A stretch of DNA of 7,076 bases from an uncultured virus (IMG/VR IMGVR_UViG_2061766007_000731) (lineage: Duplodnaviria; Heunggongvirae; Uroviricota; Caudoviricetes): the IMG/VR virus record IMGVR_UViG_2061766007_000731; one strand, given 5' to 3'. Positions within the stretch are counted from its first letter, which is position 1, and each line of letters opens with the position of its first letter. Positions 1-7,076 of the stretch are shown here, piece by piece. The position numbers and the translations under genes are program-made. Under the pieces are notes generated by a model that was not told the DNA's origin, did no database searches, and saw only the letters and a list, made by a program, of their open reading frames with translations.

Positions 1-61
1 TAATTTAATTAAATTATTATAGTCACTCCAAACGGCTTTGCTCCGTTGACCCATACATTAA

Positions 62-707
62 CCTACTACTCTATATTACTATAGCCAGTTATTAACTGTT
101 GTAGTCTGGACTATTTCATAACCATATTATTTCTAACTTAGGTTGCAGGTACATAGTCTCTACACATTTACAATATTTCTACTGATTTAGCTCGTCGTTG
201 TCCATTTTTGGAGTTTCGTCGAATTCGCCTGCTTCTACATTCAAAATTTCTTTTGACGCACTCTTAAAATAATTATTAAATGTATGATCTTTAATAAAAA
301 TAATTCCTTTCATTTGGCTATTTTTAGGTATATCTTCTCTGACATAGACACATGTTTTATCTCCAATTTCTTCAATATTAAACATAATACAANNNNNNNN
401 NNNNNNNNNNNNNAAAGCAATAATATCTACTTCATTTTTATATTTGTTTCTTGCTTTATTAGTAGTATGATTTTTACTACTTTCACATCTGCAACATCAT
501 GAATTATTATCTGATTTACAATCAGTATATTTAACTTGAACTTTTTTCAATAAAGATCCATTATCTATAATTAAATCATATCTTGCATTATCTCCAAATG
601 GAAAAGAAACTGTACAACCTCATTTAATAAACTCATAGGCTATTGCAATTTCTCCTAAATTACCTTTTGTTTTAGAATTTATCATATATTTATAATTATT
701 GGTTTAA
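62..707 (-). ncRNA. Group I self-splicing intron in tRNA-Lys (position 34/35), with homing endonuclease ORF starting in the P1 loop
   Basis: Minus strand shows IGS GAGUGC (263-258), P2 UCAAAA-GAAA-UUUUGA (256-241), P3 GCAGG/CCUGC (232-228 / 149-145), P AAUUCGACGAA, Q AACGACGAGC, R GUGUAGAGACUA, S UGAAAUAGUCC, an ACUAC/GUAGU terminal helix and terminal G at 62. The 5' boundary is inferred at the gap edge. Confidence 0.9.
179..685 (-). CDS. Intron-encoded PD-(D/E)XK homing endonuclease (I-Ssp6803I-like), ~168 aa when TGA is read as Trp
   Basis: Manual translation from ATG 685: MINSKTKGNLGEIAIAYEFIK*GCTVSFPFGDNARYDLIIDNGSLLKKVQVKYTD..., with the KG..GE / P.GD..RYDLI / VQVK motifs of group I intron PD-(D/E)XK nucleases. 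It is in frame with the listed ORF 179..385. In-frame TGA at 622-620 and 499-497; ends at TAG 181-179 inside the ribozyme core. Confidence 0.85.
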
Positions 708-750
708 NNNNNNNNNNNNNNNNNNNNNNNNNNNNNNNNNNNNNNNNNNN

Positions 751-935
751 TCTCATTTATTATTATACAATAATAAATTAATAACTTCTCGACATTTGAA
801 TAGAGCGTCAAATTGGTTATTAATTTCAAAATTTTCCTTTTTATATGGTCATAATGCTTCTCCAGATTCTTTGCCATAAATTGCAGCATTTAAATAAGCA
901 AAAGCTGCATACAATTGTCTATCTTTTTCGTTCAT
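751..935 (-). CDS. Small hypothetical phage protein (about 60 aa or more), requires TGA=Trp; 3' end at TGA 755-753 or inside the gap
   Basis: ATG 935 after an A-rich leader: MNEKDRQLYAAFAYLNAAIYGKESGEAL*PYKKENFEINNQFDALFKCREVINLLLYNNK*. The frame stays open for 31 codons after TGA 851-849 in very AT-rich DNA. Confidence 0.6.
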
Positions 936-957
936 TTTTATTTTTTTTTTCAATAAA

Positions 958-1036
958 AATTAACTCCTACAACCTATGTTATACCTAGGAATGCTTCTAC
1001 ATAGGCATCCACGCCACCACCACCTCGGAGTTAATT
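958..1036 (-). other. Intergenic nested stem-loop (terminator-like or small structured RNA)
   Basis: Outer 10-bp inverted repeat AATTAACTCC (958-967) / GGAGTTAATT (1027-1036) and inner 7-bp CCTATGT (973-979) / ACATAGG (999-1005), followed by a T run on the minus strand. Confidence 0.55.
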
Positions 1037-1070
1037 AAATTATATTCATATGTAATTGTGATTACTCGTT

Positions 1071-1625
1071 TTATTCTACAAAAGAATTAGGATGCTTCTT
1101 TCTATCCGTTGCGGAAGTGTTTTTACTACCAACCGTAGCATCTACATATTTTTGAATATCTTCGGCTTTGAATATAGTGGCTGTTATTTGCTTATGAGGA
1201 CACAGCCAGTACTCATCAAGACATTTAGAGCATCCGTTGCAGAGTTCTTTCTTGGCGAGTTCGAGGAGCTCCGCCGCTTGAGCATTCATTACTTCATTCC
1301 ACTTCTTCTCGTCCCATTTTTTTGTTGCAAAGAACTCAAAGTCGTTTTTCAAATAATCTGACAATGCTTGGGCAAGAGGTGTCAACGGCTCATTAGCAAC
1401 GAGAACAAGGTCAAGGTTAGACGGCTTTGCATTGAATTTCCCATCTATATACCATCCCGCAGCATATTCATATCCCTCTTGCACATAAGAGCCGAGGATT
1501 GGCGTACCTTCCTTGTCCTTGTAATCCCAGCGGTAAATTTTTACGGGGTACCCAGATTCAGTAACCACTGTGTACTCGCCCGATTCAATCTGGGGGCGAA
1601 ATTTGATATCAAAAGGAATTTTCAT
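1071..1625 (-). CDS. Hypothetical phage protein (MKIPFDIKFRPQIESGEY...), 184 aa
   Basis: Long ORF ending TAA. ATG 1625 is preferred over 1667 because it lies 1 nt after the upstream stop (1629-1627). The N-terminus resembles small Bacteroidales phage proteins (from memory, not searched). Confidence 0.8.
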   Translation of the reverse strand: MKIPFDIKFRPQIESGEYTVVTESGYPVKIYRWDYKDKEGTPILGSYVQEGYEYAAGWYIDGKFNAKPSNLDLVLVANEPLTPLAQALSDYLKNDFEFFATKKWDEKKWNEVMNAQAAELLELAKKELCNGCSKCLDEYWLCPHKQITATIFKAEDIQKYVDATVGSKNTSATDRKKHPNSFVE

Positions 1626-1626
1626 A

Positions 1627-1851
1627 TTACATAGAATTAAGTTTATTAACAACTTCTTGAAATGCAAGGTCTCTTGTTATTGCATTCTCGTGTGGAACGG
1701 CTCTTGTCTCTTCTATCCACTCCAGCAAAGCGTCCTTGCGGATGTACTCAATATCTTGACTGTTTTTATAACCACATGGGACATTAGTAAATGTATGGGA
1801 AAGGAAGCCAGTGCGTTCATACAATACATAAATTTTATCTGGTGCTATCAT
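1627..1851 (-). CDS. Hypothetical phage protein, 74 aa
   Basis: ORF preceded by AAGGAGG, ATGA overlap with the upstream gene, TAA stop. Confidence 0.8.
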   Translation of the reverse strand: MIAPDKIYVLYERTGFLSHTFTNVPCGYKNSQDIEYIRKDALLEWIEETRAVPHENAITRDLAFQEVVNKLNSM

Positions 1852-2180
1852 TTGTTTTCCTCCTTCAAAAGTGAAATTGCTTTCTCCATCGCAGGGATGG
1901 CATTATCGTTATACCATTTGCGTACAAGAGTATCAATTTCTTTTTTGCTTCTCCCATTAATATAGCCGCTTTCGATAAGAAGTATCGGTTCATACTCTCC
2001 TGCTGGTTCTCTTACATTGTCTATAAAATACAAAGAACATTGTGCCGTATTATCCGGCCAATATCGTGTATAAGCGGTTATCAGGTCAAAATCAAGGTCT
2101 CTTTTCCCGCAGCAGTCATCAGTCCAGACGGCATTTCGCGTAACATCTATTCCGAGATATATCTTATCAGATGCTTTCAT
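1848..2180 (-). CDS. Hypothetical phage protein, 110 aa
   Basis: AGGAGG 7 nt upstream of the ATG. Ends TGA immediately followed by TAG, so it terminates under either genetic code. Confidence 0.8.
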   Translation of the reverse strand: MKASDKIYLGIDVTRNAVWTDDCCGKRDLDFDLITAYTRYWPDNTAQCSLYFIDNVREPAGEYEPILLIESGYINGRSKKEIDTLVRKWYNDNAIPAMEKAISLLKEENK

Positions 2181-2191
2181 TTATTTTCCTC

Positions 2192-2299
2192 CTATTTAAT
2201 TAATGGCAACATTATGAAGTACCATAATATTTGAAAACCCACAAACCCAACAATAAAGGCAAGTGCGTTTCGTAAGGATTGTTTTTCGTTATCTTTCAT
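2192..2299 (-). CDS. Small single-pass membrane protein, 35 aa
   Basis: AAGGAGG then ATG 2299: MKDNEKQSLRNALAFIVGFVGFQILWYFIMLPLIK, TAG stop. Fills the space between neighbouring genes. Confidence 0.65.
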   Translation of the reverse strand: MKDNEKQSLRNALAFIVGFVGFQILWYFIMLPLIK

Positions 2300-2312
2300 T
2301 TGTTTTCCTCCT

Positions 2313-2490
2313 TTAGTGTTTTAACCTACAATGAATACCTAAAACAAATGGAAACTCTAACCAGCAAAGGGGTACAAGTATTAATATGAAAAACAATATC
2401 TTTCCTGCCGAACTTTTGAAATTGTCCCATTCGACACTACCTACCGTAAATAGTAGGCTGAATAGATNNNNNNNNNNNNNNNNNNNNCAT
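2313..2490 (-). CDS. Small hydrophobic protein, N-terminus partly masked
   Basis: Open frame 2465->2313: LFSLLFTVGSVEWDNFKSSAGKILFFILILVPLCWLEFPFVLGIHCRLKH*. ATG 2490 follows GGAGG but is in frame only if the N gap length is inexact. Confidence 0.5.
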
Positions 2491-2493
2491 ACC

Positions 2494-2577
2494 TTATCCC
2501 TCCTTTACGATGATGATGCGAACATTCTGCCCGTCCTTCTCGGCTTTCAGTTTTTCTGCATCAATGTATTTTGCCAT
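2494..2577 (-). CDS. 27-aa mini-ORF, possibly an internally deleted gene remnant
   Basis: MAKYIDAEKLKAEKDGQNVRIIIVKEG*, starting 3 nt after the upstream stop and ending 3 nt before the next ATG. Confidence 0.5.
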   Translation of the reverse strand: MAKYIDAEKLKAEKDGQNVRIIIVKEG

Positions 2578-2580
2578 AAT

Positions 2581-2997
2581 CTAAATCAAATTTTCTAAAC
2601 AATATTTAATAGCAGCTTCACAGGCTTCTTCATAAGTTTGATAGAAGACCTCATCAACGGCATCTTGAAGCATCATTTCAAAATCTGAATCAGTTTTCTG
2701 GATAACCACATAATATCCCGTGTGGCCTCCGCAAGCCCAGGAATCAAGCATTACCTGAATATAATAATGATGTACTTCCCTCAGCCACTTCATAGCCATT
2801 TGAAGAGTTGGAGCGGAATAACATTTATGTGGTTCTATTGTATTATCTAAATCACTATTAGACAATGGGGCAGATAGAGTAGTAAACAAAATGCCAACTG
2901 CTTCTTTTTCTTCATAACAGTGAAAAGAAGCATAATCAAACCCCTTCTCTTTCAGGAGTTTTGCCACTTCAAAGGAAACATAATCTTCTGTAACCAT
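2581..2997 (-). CDS. Hypothetical phage protein, 138 aa
   Basis: ORF MVTEDYVSFEVAKLLKEKGF...APTLQMAMKWLRE...TYEEACEAAIKYCL, tightly packed with neighbours. Resembles a common Bacteroidales phage family of unknown function (from memory). Confidence 0.85.
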   Translation of the reverse strand: MVTEDYVSFEVAKLLKEKGFDYASFHCYEEKEAVGILFTTLSAPLSNSDLDNTIEPHKCYSAPTLQMAMKWLREVHHYYIQVMLDSWACGGHTGYYVVIQKTDSDFEMMLQDAVDEVFYQTYEEACEAAIKYCLENLI

Positions 2998-2999
2998 AG

Positions 3000-3395
3000 T
3001 TATTTAGTTTTATACATTCCTTCAGGTGCATCAAGAGCAAGTCCTTTTTCAATCAAACCTCTAAAATCAAACATATGTTCATTAAGCCAATCATATGTCT
3101 TAATTGTTGGATAATCTTGAATTGATAATGTTTTTGTATAATTATACTCTCTTTTTTCTTCCTCGGTCATACTTGACATTGGACGAAGATATGGTTTGAC
3201 TTCCCCAATTTTAAAAGGTCTGCTGCCACTTTCAGANNNNNNNNNNNNNNNCCACCCATCGAATGTATCTGGGTAAATGTTAGTTATTTTCCAATGCGGA
3301 ACTTCAAATTCATTTTCCTTATAGTCAACGATTACCCCATAAGGTAATCTTGCGCAAAGGTCTTTCAACAGCAATTGTTTTTCTTCTTGTGTCAT
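3000..3395 (-). CDS. Hypothetical phage protein, ~131 aa
   Basis: ORF MTQEEKQLLLKDLCARLPYGV...KPYLRPMSSMTEEE...DFRGLIEKGLALDAPEGMY, in frame across a short gap, TAA stop. Resembles a common Bacteroidales phage family (from memory). Confidence 0.85.
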   Translation of the reverse strand: MTQEEKQLLLKDLCARLPYGVIVDYKENEFEVPHWKITNIYPDTFDGWXXXXXSESGSRPFKIGEVKPYLRPMSSMTEEEKREYNYTKTLSIQDYPTIKTYDWLNEHMFDFRGLIEKGLALDAPEGMYKTK

Positions 3396-3516
3396 ATAGA
3401 TAATATTTTATTTTATTTATACATACAAATAANNNNNNNNNNNNNNNNNNNNNNNNNNNNNNNNNNNNNNNNNNNNNNNNNNNNNNNNNNNNNNNNNNNA
3501 TTATTTAATAATTAAG

Positions 3517-3555
3517 TAGTCTTGCTGGGACTCCAACCCAGAACTTACAGATTAT
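3517..3555 (-). tRNA. 3' half of a tRNA (anticodon N-A-U Ile/Met type, or N-C-U Arg); 5' half not visible
   Basis: Minus strand: ATAA-TCTGT-AAGTT-CTGGG TTGGAGT CCCAG-CAAGACT-A, with correct spacing for tRNA positions 35-73 and a perfect T stem. No matching 5' half in unmasked sequence. Confidence 0.7.
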
Positions 3556-3996
3556 TTAATAGTTCTATACCTATAAAAACGATCACTATTTTTATTTTTA
3601 AATTTGTATGTATCTAATTGACTATCACAATTTGGACAAATACAACGTAAATTATCACGTTTATTATTCGAAGCATGANNNNNNNNNNNNNNNNNNNNAA
3701 ACTAATTTTTGACCATTTCATTCAGGAGATATACCACAAATAGCACACTTATTATCTTGTTCTTTTAGTATATCCTCTTTAAAAATCCTTGGAGAATAAT
3801 TAGCTCTCATTATACTTGGGTCTCCATCAATTATTAATTGATACTTTTGTTTATGTTGAAACTGTTGTTGACATTGTAATGAGCAATATTTTCCATTATG
3901 TTCTGGATATTTTATAAATTCTTTTCCGCAATTAATACATTTAGAAATAGGATAGTTTTTATTAACCTCGATTTTATTATTAAATTTACTATGTTT
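3552..3996 (-). CDS. HNH endonuclease with Cys-rich zinc-binding motifs, start hidden in gap, requires TGA=Trp
   Basis: Manual translation: ...KCINCGKEF...GKYCSLQCQ...KCAICGISPE*NGQKLV[gap]HASNNKRDNLRCICPNCDSQLDTYK...RTIK-TAA. This matches the HNH pattern C..C....WNG..L.L.LDHIDG...NN...NLR..CPNC.SQ. The two visible halves are one nt out of frame across the 20-N gap, probably from inexact gap length. Confidence 0.85.
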
Positions 3997-4538
3997 NNNN
4001 NNNNNNNNNNNNNNNNNNNNNNNNNNNNNNNNNNNNNNNNNNNNNNNNNNNNNNNNNNNNNNNNNNNNNNNNNNNNNNNNNNNNNNNNNNNNNNNNNNNN
4101 NNNNNNNNNNNNNNNNNNNNNNNNNNNNNNNNNNNNNNNNNNNNNNNNNNNNNNNNNNNNNNNNNNNNNNNNNNNNNNNNNNNNNNNNNNNNNNNNNNNN
4201 NNNNNNNNNNNNNNNNNNNNNNNNNNNNNNNNNNNNNNNNNNNNNNNNNNNNNNNNNNNNNNNNNNNNNNNNNNNNNNNNNNNNNNNNNNNNNNNNNNNN
4301 NNNNNNNNNNNNNNNNNNNNNNNNNNNNNNNNNNNNNNNNNNNNNNNNNNNNNNNNNNNNNNNNNNNNNNNNNNNNNNNNNNNNNNNNNNNNNNNNNNNN
4401 NNNNNNNNNNNNNNNNNNNNNNNNNNNNNNNNNNNNNNNNNNNNNNNNNNNNNNNNNNNNNNNNNNNNNNNNNNNNNNNNNNNNNNNNNNNNNNNNNNNN
4501 NNNNNNNNNNNNNNNNNNNNNNNNNNNNNNNNNNNNNN

Positions 4539-4574
4539 TTAAAAAATCTCCAGAAACTATTAAAACTGGAGATT
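4539..4574 (-). terminator. Hairpin plus TTTTAA (terminator-like or tRNA-leader element)
   Basis: 9-bp inverted repeat AATCTCCAG (4545-4553) / CTGGAGATT (4566-4574), followed on the minus strand by TTTTAA. Confidence 0.5.
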
Positions 4575-4675
4575 GGCCCCATCATTAAATAGGAGGTGTA
4601 AGAATCTATCCTATAATAGTTTTTTAAGTCAAATCTTATGAAGTTCTACAATTTGTCTTTGATGCTCATGCATCG

Positions 4676-5362
4676 TAGCTCAGGCCGGACTCGAACCGGC
4701 ACGGTCATTACTGACCAACGGATTTTCTTACCACTATAGTTTTCACTACCAAATTTTACAACCTTTTGACGTGTCACTATTGAAAGTGAATGCCTATTCT
4801 AAGGCTAGACTCGAACTAGCAACATAACCTTGCACGTTATTCCGTTTTAACTAAATTTGTTTGTGGTCTGGACTCTATCTTAACCATATTGAAATCTTGC
4901 AAGAACTATTGTTTTATGTCCATCTTTCAGGTTTAGTACAATAGCAAATTTATTTCAACTTAGGCCCCTCCTGTATAGTCTCTACACACGCCTGTTAGCC
5001 TTCTACCACTCTAAAAGATAGGGCTTCTAGTATGCTAACTGCTTGGCTCGGTATTAGCATATAAAGTCCGTGTTCTTCTCTCTCCTAAACCATCGTTGGC
5101 TATCTTCACAGAAATTCCATTAATAGGAGTATAGGACTTGTCCTTTAAGCTTTAACAAGTTAATTTACACAATTATCCGTATCGTATGCCTTATATTACT
5201 ATAAGTAACGCTGCGCGACCTGTAAAACTTTACTTAGCTTTCACCGAATTAGGGAGGTTCTGCATCTGGAGTTTCCCCCAGTGCACTCAAATTTATAACT
5301 TACTGTCTATCAACAAGTTAAAGACAAAAGTCCGTAGTGTCTACCTATTCCACCACTGAGCC
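4676..5362 (-). tRNA. trnL: tRNA-Leu(UAA) split by a group I intron; exon 1 5362-5328, exon 2 4726-4676
   Basis: Joined exons give GGCTCAGTGGTGGAATAGGTAGACACTACGGACTT|AAAATCCGTTGGTCAGTAATGACCGTGCCGGTTCGAGTCCGGCCTGAGCTA: acceptor GGCTCAG/CTGAGCT, anticodon stem ACGGA/TCCGT, loop CT-TAA-AA, long variable arm GGTCA/TGACC, T arm GCCGG-TTCGAGT-CCGGC, discriminator A. Confidence 0.95.
4727..5327 (-). ncRNA. Group I self-splicing intron (601 nt, no ORF) between U34 and A35 of tRNA-Leu(UAA)
   Basis: P1 exon ACUU pairs with IGS GAGU (5288-5285) including the U.G splice-site pair. P2 CUGGGG-GAAA-CUCCAG (5281-5266), P3 CCUCC/GGAGG (5257-5253 / 4971-4967), P4 UUCGGU/ACCGAG, R GUGUAGAGACUA, S AAGAUAGAGUCC, ACCAC/GUGGU helix, terminal G at 4727. 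Confidence 0.95.
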
Positions 5363-5404
5363 TTAAAAATCTACTTCCAAACCTTCACAGGACCCTAAGT
5401 AGAT
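5363..5404 (-). terminator. Hairpin plus TTTTAA directly before tRNA-Leu
   Basis: 8-bp inverted repeat ATCTACTT (5369-5376) / AAGTAGAT (5397-5404), then TTTTAA, then G1 of the tRNA. Confidence 0.45.
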
Positions 5405-5438
5405 GAAGAGTTTTAGAGATATGAGTAGCAAAATCATA

Positions 5439-5645
5439 TCAAGCTTTTGCTCCTACATCAAGAATAAGTTCTTTCGCGTTTTGTTTAATTTCAGGTTCAA
5501 TATATTCTTTAATAAACTCTGCAGAAATGGCATCCATCCAATTAGATATCATAATGCCTTCAAGTTTACCAGAAGTTGTTTTAAAATTTTCAGGATTTTT
5601 AAAAAAATTACGAATTTTCGTAATAGATTCTAACAAATCATTCAT
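5439..5645 (-). CDS. Hypothetical protein, 68 aa or more (3' end uncertain because it ends at TGA)
   Basis: ORF MNDLLESITKIRN...LDVGAKA overlapping the upstream gene end. With TGA=Trp it would continue WYDFATHISKTLHLL... Confidence 0.6.
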   Translation of the reverse strand: MNDLLESITKIRNFFKNPENFKTTSGKLEGIMISNWMDAISAEFIKEYIEPEIKQNAKELILDVGAKA

Positions 5646-5927
5646 AATCTACTGGGATTACTTTATAATACCAATCAACCACTTCTCCATCAACTCGTTT
5701 TTCAACAAGTTCTACATCACCTACAATATAATGATCTATGGCATCGGATTGCACATTTCGCTTATTTCTGTTAAATAGAAAAATCGCACATCCGATAAGA
5801 ATGATAGATACAATAAGGCAAGGAATTGTAAATTTAGATTTTATGACTTCCTTAAAACTATAAGTAATAGATAAGTCAATAAAAGACCAAATAATAATAG
5901 TAGCGACAATTACTGCCATTAAAGCAA
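5638..5927 (-). CDS. Hypothetical membrane protein with two hydrophobic segments; start probably in gap 5928-5968
   Basis: ALMAVIVATIIIWSFIDLSITY...FTIPCLIVSIILIGCAIFLFNRNKR...YYKVIPVDYE. Ends at TGA 5640-5638, or at a TAA 10 codons later under code 4. Confidence 0.7.
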
Positions 5928-5968
5928 NNNNNNNNNNNNNNNNNNNNNNNNNNNNNNNNNNNNNNNNN

Positions 5969-6148: not shown

Positions 6149-6431
6149 CGATTTTATTTATTAAATTAATTAAATTTTTCTTAAGACGGGGTCTTGAATT
6201 AACAAAATCTTTAAATTGCCCATCATCATAAACCCTTCCATCATCATAACCGTTTAAATCTTTAACTAATTCAAGATTATATTTGTTAATTATTTTAGTT
6301 GCTATTTTATCGTCTAGATCAGTGATAGTAATTCCTTTACCGTTATTACTGATTTTAATATGGCAATATTTATATTTATTAACCGCTTCAGTTNNNNNNN
6401 NNNNNNNNNNNNNNNNNNNNNNNNNNNNNAT
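6141..6431 (-). CDS. Hypothetical protein, ~96 aa, missed by the ORF track because the start is masked
   Basis: Open frame 6392->6141: TEAVNKYKYCHIKISNNGKGITITDLDDKIATKIINKYNLELVKDLNGYDDGRVYDDGQFKDFVNSRPRLKKNLINLINKIDE-TAA. An in-frame ATN at 6431-6429 follows AAGGGA. Confidence 0.7.
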   Translation of the reverse strand, partial: XXXXXXXXXXXXXTEAVNKYKYCHIKISNNGKGITITDLDDKIATKIINKYNLELVKDLNGYDDGRVYDDGQFKDFVNSRPRLKKNLINLINKIDE

Positions 6432-6467
6432 TTAATCCCTTGTTTATTTTATAAATTTTTAAATATG

Positions 6468-6545
6468 TGGGAATGATCTGAATCGAACAGATGAAAATGC
6501 CCATCTTGTAAGGATGGCGGCTTAAACCAACTGGCCCACATTCCC
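6468..6545 (-). tRNA. trnV: tRNA-Val(UAC), uninterrupted
   Basis: GGGAATG/CATTCCC acceptor, D loop AGTTGGTTTAA, anticodon arm CCATC-CTTACAA-GATGG, T arm ATCTG-TTCGATT-CAGAT, discriminator A, 8-nt variable region. Confidence 0.92.
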
Positions 6546-6551
6546 ATAAAT

Positions 6552-7076
6552 TTGCAGAAACGATTAAACTGCAATGGACTCTTGCGTTACTATTATTCCA
6601 AAATTTAAATAACGTTTGATAATCCTTTTTTAGACAAAATTTGGATTTTTGTTCTAATCGAGTTTTTAAATATAAAATATAACATTTGACATCAAGTTCC
6701 TCGTAACTCACTGTTATATGAAATAATTATTAGAGGTTTGCTTTCATCTTGCTATACTTGATACGTCAAAATATCAAAAGTTATAGTAATTCAAATAGCA
6801 AGTTTCTTGAAAAATTAGCCCTTATTTCACTTCAATATAATTCGCCAATCATATTAAAGAACACTAATCTTCCTCAAATGCCCAATTCTTATCCTAAACT
6901 ACATTCGGATCCAGCTAAATTGAGTTAGCTCCTTTATTAACTCATTCGCATTAATAAAAGTTGTAATTTAATTTTTCTGGTTTCGCCGTTAACTATGTCT
7001 AGACTTATGGATTCAACAAAATAGTTTACTTTTTGCTAGATAGGATGTTATCCAGATATACCGTGTAATTAAGAAC
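6552..7076 (-). ncRNA. Candidate large structured non-coding RNA, probably extending beyond the window
   Basis: No credible ORF found. Dense inverted repeats at 6552-6557/6569-6574, 6621-6625/6643-6647, 6677-6684/6712-6719, 6748-6755/6795-6802 (inner 6758-6763/6772-6777), 6913-6918/6925-6930, 6933-6940/6951-6958, and long-range 6891-6896/7041-7046. Strand assumed from neighbours. Confidence 0.45.

Follow-up and report, generated by a model that had tools for sequence, protein, structure and literature searches.

The window analysed here, 7,076 nucleotides with about 22% G+C, is a cluster of tRNA genes in a phage-like genome that comes from the cattle rumen. Its tRNA genes are densely packed, with endonuclease genes mixed in among them. 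Two tRNA genes appear to be split by group I introns, named A and C, and the intron, exon and HNH/tRNA features below are all on the minus strand:

23..61, minus strand: 3' exon of the tRNA gene that hosts intron A, UUAA-UGUAU-GGGUC-AACGG-AGCAAAG-CCGUU-UGGAGUG-A (read from the sequence)
62..707, minus strand: predicted group I intron A, about 646 nt, with its 5' end as placed by the first-pass annotation (own model R2, Rfam RF00028)
179..685, minus strand: putative homing endonuclease gene in L1 of intron A, 168 codons (Pfam PF11645, phrog_5018, PDB 2ost_A)
708..750, minus strand: expected site of the 5' exon for intron A, masked (N)
3517..3551, minus strand: tRNA 3' fragment adjoining the stop codon of the HNH gene and not preceded by a G; its T loop is UUGGAGU (read from the sequence)
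3552..3996, minus strand: visible part of an HNH endonuclease gene, broken by a mask at 3679-3698, start in the mask 3997-4538, one in-frame TGA (similarity to cr116_1)
4675..4726, minus strand: tRNA-Leu(UAA) 3' exon, 52 nt, AAAAUCCGU, long variable arm, discriminator A (stem/loop search, ARAGORN)
4727..5327, minus strand: predicted group I intron C, 601 nt, no ORF (Rfam RF00028, own model R2, free-energy fold)
5328..5362, minus strand: tRNA-Leu(UAA) 5' exon, 35 nt, ending ...ACGGACUU at U34 (anticodon stem/loop search, ARAGORN on the joined exons)
6467..6545, minus strand: tRNA-Val(UAC), an uninterrupted gene of the same cluster (ARAGORN)

Intron C is inserted between U34 and A35 of tRNA-Leu(UAA), the classic site to which it had been assigned from the sequence at first sight. 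The tRNA itself fixes the splice sites, with stem ACGGA, loop CUU/AAAA and stem UCCGU, and the 3' exon continues into a T arm GCCGG-UUCGAGU-CCGGC followed by the acceptor strand. Removal of the intron leaves a regular tRNA, and ARAGORN calls the joined exons tRNA-Leu(taa) of 87 nt with a score of 120.0. The exon end ACUU, proposed earlier as the target, indeed pairs with the guide GAGU in P1, with a U5328.G5288 pair at the cut, so that U at -1 and a terminal G are both present. Large inserts lie in L1, P5, P6, P8 and L9, and no ORF of at least 25 aa is found on the minus strand inside the intron. Free-energy folding recovers P2, P3, P4, P5, P6, P8 and P9 (z -2.58, 0 of 20 shuffles as good). 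Contigs 97-99% identical to parts of intron C occur in four of four metatranscriptome runs from four studies; the differences number 2-3 over 5043-5258 and 4-5 over 4725-4885, and none of the RNA contig matches listed from these runs contains an exon-to-exon joint. The cyanobacterial and plastid tRNA-Leu(UAA) intron, class Leu.3Ug, occupies the same gene and site (CUU/intron/AAAA) and is alike in U at -1, terminal G and kind of core (bioRxiv 10.1101/2020.01.27.920355), whereas intron C lies in a phage-like tRNA cluster and carries its peripheral inserts in a length of 601 nt.

The 5' exon of intron A falls wholly within the mask, so the ...ACUU site claimed for it is deduced from the guide UAAGAGU and the visible 3' exon; the exon side of P1 is masked, and the visible splice features are the omega-G at 62 and the guide GAGU. 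The guide and the 3' exon, UUAAUGUAU..., fit tRNA-Lys(UUU) at the same loop site as intron C. The identical guide word is found in three of four other introns at site 3 of tRNA-Lys(UUU) (L056, L049 and L032; L012 differs), and the cores closest to that of intron A are those of tRNA-Lys introns. The host is thus most likely tRNA-Lys(UUU), split after U34, as judged from guide and exon. In the 3' exon, UUAA, the stem UGUAU, the variable loop, the T arm and the acceptor strand are all of regular length. Its T loop AGCAAAG is non-canonical, and because U54-U55 are lacking, the host tRNA may be impaired.

The reading frame in L1 of intron A contains two in-frame TGA codons, passes through the guide, P2, P3, P4 and P5, and ends at a UAG (181..179) inside P6. 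With both TGA codons read as sense, its product belongs to the PD-(D/E)XK family PF11645 (E 4.1e-26, 92.1 bits against a cut-off of 26.1, profile positions 1-137 of 138). It also matches phrog_5018 (E 1.9e-21) and PDB 2ost_A (E 2.5e-6), and the alignments to relatives and to 2ost include its words YDLIIDNG and VQVK. From these alignments the protein is classed as a PD-(D/E)XK homing endonuclease of the I-Ssp6803I-like type, one that requires TGA to be read as Trp. Neighbouring ORFs apparently end at TGA (1848-1850, 5638-5640), so translation of the gene may be impossible some or all of the time. In IMG/VR its relatives stand alone, located between tRNA genes of phages. The tRNA-fMet intron of Synechocystis PCC 6803 is likewise an anticodon-loop group I intron with a PD-(D/E)XK homing endonuclease, which we take to be I-Ssp6803I, PDB 2OST; the match 2ost is annotated 'Putative endonuclease'. 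Intron A differs from it in the tRNA (most likely Lys UUU) and the loop position, and in that its gene sits in the P1 loop, overlaps the core up to P6 and needs TGA as Trp. For the Synechocystis endonuclease, the reference given in the review PMC3984707 is Bonocora and Shub 2001.

Both introns carry a recognisable group I core, which is complete in A. The words reported as common to the two are present far above chance: GTGTAGAGACTA-N(8-16)-CCTAAGTT, which forms the P7/P3'/P8 block, occurs twice in the window (165..135 in A, 4987..4957 in C), as does AGTCCAGACYACAA (112..99 in A, 4874..4861 in C), with 0.00 occurrences of either expected from 200 shuffles. In A, P10 is UUAA (267..264), followed by the guide GAGU (263..260); in C they are UUU (5291..5289) and GAGU (5288..5285). 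The P4 5' strands lie at 223..218 and 5248..5243. Each of the compensatory swaps described by the first-pass annotation is borne out: P2 is UCAAAA/UUUUGA in A (256..251 / 246..241) and CUGGGG/CUCCAG in C (5281..5276 / 5271..5266), capped by GAAA in both; P3 is GCAGG/CCUGC (232..228 / 149..145) against CCUCC/GGAGG (5257..5253 / 4971..4967); and the closing helix P9 is ACUAC/GUAGU (105..101 / 69..65) against ACCAC/GUGGU (4867..4863 / 4734..4730). The last intron base is the omega-G in both (62 and 4727).

Searched against short stretches, the Rfam covariance model RF00028 matches both introns over its full length, with 43.0 bits for A (E 5.3e-10, stretch 20-300) and 35.3 bits for C (E 2.6e-7, stretch 4700-5370), but both scores fall below the gathering score of 50 bits, and two runs on the whole window returned no group I match. 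Williams 2020 worked with 18-20 bits for tRNA introns (bioRxiv 10.1101/2020.01.27.920355). Our own model R2, built from seven short phage tRNA introns, matches A with 115.1 bits (E 7e-23, full model 1-132, one non-standard pair) and C with 37.1 bits (E 1e-6); elsewhere in the window a single match reaches an E value of 1 or better, with 14.1 bits (E 0.07, 6642..6574). In the family alignment of 81 matches, of which 75 rows are distinct, 94.7% of cells pair, whereas shuffles reach 73.7%; both sides change in 12 of 15 pairs, and slid controls pair at 30-54%. An anchored read-out of 62 unique introns finds P3 paired in 302 of 310 cases with 26 helix types, and P8 in 194 of 196 with 10 types. The own model and the family alignment back the core helix set P3, P4, P7 and P8, to which P7, being invariant in the family, contributes nothing either way on covariation. 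We put the probability that two tRNA genes of this phage-like cluster are split after U34 by A and C, as group I introns from the classical family of bacterial tRNA anticodon loops, at about 0.85.

Among IMG/VR phage stretches, 89 contain the core motif, which in 77 lies within a tRNA call that is split, and the shortest phage relatives measure 195-209 nt. Bacterial genome assemblies share the core word in 36 stretches; 32 of these contain a tRNA call with a split longer than 150 nt, among them one from an Anaeroplasmatales MAG. According to Williams 2020 (bioRxiv 10.1101/2020.01.27.920355), a group I intron database marks the four classical bacterial tRNA classes as IC3, and by that statement the subgroup label IC3 would be the one the literature attaches to such introns. 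Among phages the family occupies many different tRNA genes, and the guide is altered to fit each. Introns in Leu(UAA) use UUUGAGU (C, L036 and L006, with variants in L029, L078 and L021), those in Lys(UUU) use UAAGAGU (A, L056, L049 and L032), and those in CAU tRNAs cut at site 5 use AUUGUGU. On average 6.03 of the 7 guide positions fit the exons of the same intron, compared with 5.02 for exons of other classes, and the own exons fit better in 52 of 61 cases. The core words of A and C presumably resemble those of the Azoarcus sp. BH72 pre-tRNA-Ile(CAU) intron. The latter, for which structures are given in PMC13168695, belongs to this family and is small; it differs from A and C in being bacterial and about 200 nt long, with neither peripheral inserts nor an ORF.

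Splicing would proceed as expected for the family. In the precursor tRNA, the 7-nt guide would form P1 by pairing with the last exon bases ACUU, leaving a U.G pair at the cut, and P10 by pairing with the start of the 3' exon. Free guanosine would then attack the 5' splice site, after which the terminal G would take its place, joining the exons and rebuilding the 7-nt anticodon loop. The endonuclease of intron A may cut intron-less alleles in co-infecting phages, into which the intron would be copied. The supply of the two tRNAs would depend on splicing.

The interrupted genes, one or both, could instead be decaying relics, with an intron that does not splice or a pseudogene tRNA, in a phage independent of both. 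The T loop AGCAAAG of the intron A exon, the TGA codons in the endonuclease gene and the missing ligated joint among the RNA contig matches listed all point this way, and the clearly broken fragment at 3551..3517 next door is evidence of tRNA gene decay within the cluster. However, the core of intron A fits the whole of model R2 with a single non-standard pair, and a frame of 168 codons free of TAA and TAG persists in DNA of about 22% G+C. Moreover, all helices of intron C pair and its exons form a canonical tRNA-Leu. Decay is thus an unlikely explanation.

The two introns were probably acquired separately, as their core sequences suggest. Compared over 107-109 concatenated core positions, A shares 69% identity with C (74/107) but 87% (93/107) with L056 and L032, which are tRNA-Lys introns from other contigs. 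For C the identity rises to 95% (104/109) with L011 and L024, its closest relatives, which also come from other contigs and split tRNAs with a CAU anticodon. The latter two interrupt loop site 5 and correspond to class Ile2.5Ug of Williams 2020 (bioRxiv 10.1101/2020.01.27.920355). Because each intron is so much closer to introns of other phages than to its neighbour, separate acquisition is favoured over spread within the genome. Consistently, A and C fall in different major clades with 96/99 support each, in a tree of only 109 columns whose bootstrap is not fully settled. The first-pass annotation had proposed that a single lineage spread between different tRNA genes of this genome. Within this genome, copying might seem easy, with both introns cut after U34, a common guide core GAGU and long core words, and retargeting that needs a change of just three P10 guide bases. 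However, besides the low identity and the separate clades, C has no endonuclease gene and the peripheral inserts are unlike throughout, which makes in-genome copying rather improbable.

The cluster was also described as repeatedly interrupted, which is true of the two introns A and C; the third candidate site, at the HNH gene, is devoid of intron features in the visible sequence. It was considered whether the region 3996..3517, with the 542 masked bases upstream, is a third intron-split tRNA. The tRNA 3' part directly follows the HNH gene and starts about where site-3 introns end, an HNH gene lies inside a tRNA-Lys intron in the relative L032, and a core could hide in the masked bases. However, no G precedes the fragment, its T loop is UUGGAGU, and neither a P9 closing helix nor the core word lies between gene and fragment; core, omega-G and closing helix are absent from all of the visible sequence around the gene. 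The HNH protein is 64% and 90% identical to a free-standing HNH protein of the crAss-like phage cr116_1, with its TGA aligned to W. Among the eight closest IMG/VR relatives, an intact tRNA-Arg(UCU) stands just after the gene in six, and the intron core word in none. These missing elements and the free-standing relatives speak against an intron-encoded gene; the gene is probably free-standing, and a third split tRNA at this site is quite unlikely.

The phage-like surroundings are upheld by PHROG families and by the relatives found in crAss-like phages and IMG/VR contigs. A very unlikely alternative is that the DNA comes from a cell reading TGA as Trp, such as a Mollicutes-like bacterium, and carries ordinary bacterial tRNA introns: the window has no phage hallmark gene within its 7,076 nt, its low G+C and TGA as Trp would suit such a cell, and the core word occurs in bacterial assemblies, but both at the DNA and at the protein level the top matches come from crAss-like phages and IMG/VR contigs, three ORFs match PHROG families at E values of 1e-8 or below and a fourth marginally (E 0.0096), tRNA genes and endonuclease genes are densely interspersed, and TGA is apparently also a stop here, as passages in two reports describe for phages with recoded late genes (PMC7886860; 10.1101/2021.08.26.457843).

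A bolder and doubtful extension of the tRNA-intron reading is that rumen phages switching the meaning of TGA late use the tRNA cluster as a regulated arena, more than a mere repository of selfish DNA, in which introns hop between U34 tRNAs via changes of the 7-nt guide and trade endonuclease genes with free-standing neighbours. Because production of the endonucleases would have to await the reading of TGA as Trp, homing would be timed to late infection. The split precursors of Leu UAA and Lys UUU might then hold back tRNAs needed by A+T-rich late genes, or shield them from anticodon-cutting host defences.

The T4 introns td, nrdB and nrdD are phage-borne group I introns with homing endonucleases; they interrupt protein genes, whereas A and C interrupt tRNA genes. 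Up to 2014 all observed phage introns lay in protein-coding genes despite the many phage tRNA genes (PMC3984707), in contrast to the phage-like genome described here. SegB, presented in a passage of PMC13096335, is an endonuclease gene among T4 tRNA genes and in this respect resembles the free-standing relatives of the endonucleases found here.

Introns A and C of the window are both genuine members of the classical family of group I introns that interrupt tRNA genes, and the tRNA cluster in which they lie is phage-like. Cyanobacteria, plastids and some proteobacteria are known to have group I introns in the anticodon loops of tRNAs. All features of this finding are on the minus strand, and N masks hide nine parts of the window (393-413, 708-750, 2468-2487, 3237-3251, 3433-3499, 3679-3698, 3997-4538, 5928-5968 and 6394-6429).

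Features of introns A and C and of a third endonuclease site
5362..5328, minus strand: 5' exon of tRNA-Leu(UAA), 3' terminus reading ...ACGGACUU
5327..4727, minus strand: intron C
4726..4675, minus strand: 3' exon of tRNA-Leu(UAA), first bases AAAAUCCGU
3996..3552, minus strand: visible part of an HNH gene, ending three bases before the tRNA 3' fragment
3551..3517, minus strand: tRNA 3' fragment, T loop UUGGAGU
707..62, minus strand: intron A, 3' terminus ...GUAGUAGG, last base 62
685..179, minus strand: endonuclease ORF of intron A, 168 codons, from the 5' splice-site side across the guide into the core
61..23, minus strand: 3' exon of intron A, with UUAA, stem UGUAU, variable loop GGGUC, T arm AACGG-AGCAAAG-CCGUU, acceptor strand UGGAGUG and discriminator A

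The split-site rule, which demands a 5-bp stem, a loop of 7 nt with U33 and a purine at 37, U or C at -1 and an intron-final G, allows only one solution for intron C, ACGGA-CUU/AAAA-UCCGU, in which the slash marks a cut between U34 and A35 of the anticodon UAA. When the exons are joined, ARAGORN recognizes an 87-nt tRNA-Leu(UAA) with a long variable arm, a canonical T arm and a score of 120.0. The first-pass annotation had placed the interruptions at the anticodon (34/35), and for intron C the rule and the joined exons support this. The unconstrained free-energy fold of the intron recovers P2, P3, P4, P5, P6, P8 and P9 at -148.9 kcal/mol (z -2.58), and none of 20 shuffles folds equally well. 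The intron owes its 601 nt to inserts in L1, P5, P6, P8 and L9, and no ORF of 25 codons or more is present on its own strand. Among the loci compared, the L9, L8 and L1 inserts have no match, and just the last 18-36 bases of the P5 insert are shared. At about 4795-4845 (minus strand), L9 contains a T-arm-shaped hairpin, GCUAG-UUCGAGU-CUAGC, preceded by a variable-arm-like hairpin; RNA contigs of relatives have different inserts exactly there, and the L9 region folded alone is no better than shuffles (z -1.48).

The core of intron A (236..106) matches all 132 positions of our own family model, a covariance model of seven short phage tRNA introns, with 115.1 bits (E 7e-23) and one non-standard pair, in P4. 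Its 3' exon has the length and layout of a tRNA 3' part with the loop CUU/UUAA of Lys(UUU), the position of the 5' exon being masked (708-750), and its T loop has A and G in place of the expected U54 and U55. Three indirect lines point to tRNA-Lys(UUU), cut after U34, as the probable host. The 7-nt internal guide UAAGAGU (266..260) recurs unchanged in three of the four other tRNA-Lys(UUU) introns at loop site 3, after U34 (loci L056, L049 and L032), the guide of Leu(UAA) introns being mostly UUUGAGU. The UAA part of this guide pairs with the first exon bases UUA(A) as P10, and the cores closest to intron A are those of these Lys introns.

Covariance models of group I introns had been proposed as a check in the first-pass annotation. 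Searched alone, both introns match Rfam RF00028, intron A with 43.0 bits (20-300, E 5.3e-10) and intron C with 35.3 bits (4700-5370, E 2.6e-7, model positions 1-253), but both scores are below the gathering score of 50, and the whole window yields no Rfam match at gathering scores or at E up to 10. ARAGORN in default mode reports one tRNA in the window, tRNA-Val(UAC) at 6545..6467 (minus strand). Its intron search misplaces intron C by two bases under the label 'tRNA-Stop(tta)' i(38,599), and many Leu genes are labelled Phe. Because such intron placement is unreliable and ranking of candidate splits by ARAGORN score is ambiguous, the split-site rule was used in its place. Promoter-like and terminator-like sites occur in the window in chance numbers only. 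At 6574-6642 (minus strand), a weak intron-model match (14.1 bits, E 0.07) consists of AGUCCA, a hairpin and ...AUG abutting base 1 of tRNA-Val; it could be the decayed 3' part of an intron, or chance.

Thirteen RNA runs, all of animal gut or rumen origin, contain parts of 4676-5362, and contigs of four of these runs, from four studies, were compared at 90% likeness. In each of the four runs, 5043-5258 is covered by contigs showing 2-3 differences, and contigs with 4-5 differences cover 4725-4874 in run X3 and 4729-4885 in run X6. Many further contigs share core words only and carry other inserts (for example, joints of 4751/4752 to 4857/4858), and they represent relatives. In X3, X6 and X9 there are contigs that link the intron 3' end (4722-4727) to the guide region (5265-5293) through 4-27 intervening letters, as expected of the full-length circular intron of a relative. 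Because these are contigs at 90% likeness, they give a hint only, and RNA libraries may contain DNA too. No exon-to-exon joint occurs among the joints listed for the four runs (32 further joints stand outside the list). Contig depth is zero in the bins 4539-4679 and 5385-5927 in the four runs, and missing cover carries no weight.

The core word of the family, the P7/P3'/P8 motif GTGTAGAGACTA-N(8-16)-CCTAAGTT, occurs in 89 IMG/VR stretches, in 77 of which it lies inside a split tRNA call of the ARAGORN intron search. In the alignment of 81 model matches, which make 75 distinct rows, the paired share of cells is 94.7% vs 73.7% in shuffles, and the fit of this alignment to the model favours pairing; sliding the partners by 1-3 columns leaves 30-54% paired. 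Double-sided changes are seen in 12 of the 15 pairs. In a read-out of 62 unique introns anchored on invariant words, P3 is paired at 302 of 310 positions with 26 helix types and P8 at 194 of 196 with 10 types, the P3 5' strand being chosen partly by pairing, which favours pairing; five more unique introns, on which the word anchors failed, were left out. The compensatory changes in P2, P3 and the closing helix noticed at first reading are all in place and hold across the family.

Targets of 61 unique phage introns, intron A excluded (loop sites from the split-site rule)
Leu(UAA), loop site 3: 33 introns
Leu(UAA), loop site 2: 3 introns
Arg(UCU), loop site 3: 4 introns
Lys(UUU), loop site 3: 4 introns
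Lys(UUU), loop site 5: 1 intron
CAU anticodon, loop site 5: 4 introns
CAU anticodon, loop site 2: 1 intron
Ser(UGA), loop site 3: 2 introns
Gln(UUG), loop site 4: 2 introns
CUA suppressor-like, loop site 4: 2 introns
Leu(CAA), loop site 2 or 3: 2 introns
Asn(GUU), loop site 4: 1 intron
Target unclear: 2 introns

On average, a guide matches its own exons at 6.03 of 7 positions, with 23 perfect fits, vs 5.02 for exons of other classes, both means being inflated because the best site per window was taken. The fit to the own exons is superior in 52 of the 61 introns. Bacterial genome assemblies also carry the core word, in 36 stretches; in 32 of these, including isolates of Polynucleobacter and Limnohabitans, a tRNA call is interrupted by more than 150 nt. 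Therefore, this is the classical bacterial family and not a phage-only one. The IMG/VR loci L016 and L017 contain two CUA-anticodon, amber-suppressor-like tRNAs split at loop site 4 by introns of the same family.

Movement of the family from one tRNA gene to another is plain. Over 107-109 concatenated core positions, intron C is identical to the intron of L011 at 104 of 109, and the L011 intron interrupts a tRNA with CAU anticodon at a different place in the loop. Intron A shares 93 of 107 positions with L056 and 74 of 107 with intron C. In a tree built from just 109 columns, with a bootstrap not fully settled, introns A and C fall one each in the two major clades (support 96/99 apiece), intron A with L056 and L032 (86/84) and intron C with L011 and L024 (100/99). 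The first-pass annotation had one lineage spreading between the tRNA genes of one genome. Movement between tRNA genes stands, but copying within the genome is not supported by the identity of introns A and C or by their separate clades; separate arrivals are most likely the better explanation.

No phage hallmark gene is found within the window. Three of its ORFs match PHROG at E 1e-8 or better, and its DNA matches crAss-like phages and a tRNA of Lak phages. A 138-aa protein has relatives at 61-71% identity on seven IMG/VR contigs; one is on a 363-kb contig that also bears an intron-split tRNA (L005), and another adjoins a tRNA cluster with a split tRNA. The 198-aa ORF has no tblastn match in the phage collection. 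A mitochondrial origin, suggested by TGA as Trp and low G+C, was dropped, the relatives being phage contigs and the tRNAs of bacterial type.

According to the standard review (PMC3984707), all phage introns seen are in protein genes despite many phage tRNA genes. Williams 2020 (preprint 10.1101/2020.01.27.920355) extends the bacterial classes from 4 to 21 and names CUU/a...g/AAAA 'Leu.3Ug', and the word 'phage' is absent from its text. No description of group I introns in phage tRNA genes was found in full-text searches of a literature that includes few subscription journals. Together with the 89 IMG/VR stretches, the window shows that this classical intron family occurs commonly among phage tRNA clusters and occupies at least eight anticodon classes. 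Standard tRNA finders miss such intron-split genes, and therefore phage tRNA and suppressor inventories are undercounted. The family offers a natural series in which to study the retargeting of a ribozyme guide and the association of introns with homing endonuclease genes.

Judged from its sequence, the ORF of intron A is an I-Ssp6803I-like endonuclease gene. Its best-covered match is to the PD-(D/E)XK endonuclease profile of Pfam, PF11645 (E 4.1e-26, profile positions 1-137 of 138), and it also matches phrog_5018 and, at E 2.5e-6, PDB 2ost. The latter is I-Ssp6803I, which is encoded by the tRNA-fMet intron of Synechocystis. Although the DNA has only about 22% G+C, the frame has two TGA and zero TAA or TAG codons; it crosses the guide, P2, P3, P4 and P5, and reaches a UAG stop within P6. 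Six relatives in IMG/VR, with 38-61% identity, sit next to or at tRNA genes in five of six loci; the core word is absent from all six, and they are therefore free-standing. L032 has an HNH gene at the intron position where intron A has its PD-(D/E)XK gene, and both enzyme types have free-standing relatives among phage tRNA genes. We infer splicing and homing. The tRNA-Lys(UUU) intron of L032 (674-1693) has its HNH gene, with in-frame TAG codons, in the P1 loop, and L056 has a shortened copy; the first exon bases are repeated (UAAUGUAA) at a distance of seventeen bases ahead of the true 3' splice site.

The HNH region of the window is probably a free-standing endonuclease gene beside a broken tRNA gene. 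The two visible pieces of the HNH protein share 64% and 90% identity with the HNH protein of cr116_1, a crAss-like phage, where the gene is free-standing with tRNA-Leu on one side and tRNA-Arg on the other. Among its eight closest IMG/VR relatives, six have an intact tRNA-Arg(UCU) after the gene and none has the core word. A third intron-split tRNA at this gene is unlikely: the visible sequence, upstream of which 542 bases are masked, has no G before the tRNA fragment 3551..3517, no closing helix and no core match, and the closest relatives are free-standing. The DNA 3' of the gene does not align convincingly with cr116_1, and an exact search with 3543..3520 of the fragment finds no IMG/VR stretch.

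Both endonuclease genes (179-685 and 3700-3996) use TGA as a sense codon, as does a small ORF (753-953), and the TGA of the HNH gene aligns with W of the cr116_1 protein. TGA also appears to terminate two neighbouring ORFs, at 1848-1850 and 5638-5640, in overlaps of the ATGA type. Such mixed use agrees with reports (PMC7886860 and the preprint 10.1101/2021.08.26.457843) of gut phages whose late genes have recoded stop codons, the preprint also describing a TGA-rich intron endonuclease proposed to be made only late in infection. The mixed use of TGA as sense and stop within 7 kb fits stage-specific recoding, in which the endonucleases would be translatable only late. A long inverted repeat without Rfam match (TTAACTCC...GGAGTTAA) lies between two ORFs at 961-1036. 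A block of five small standard-code ORFs (1071-3395) interrupts the tRNA cluster, with G+C of 0.35-0.44 vs 0.20-0.30. The 138-aa protein family is present in several copies on IMG/VR contigs, with five in L152.
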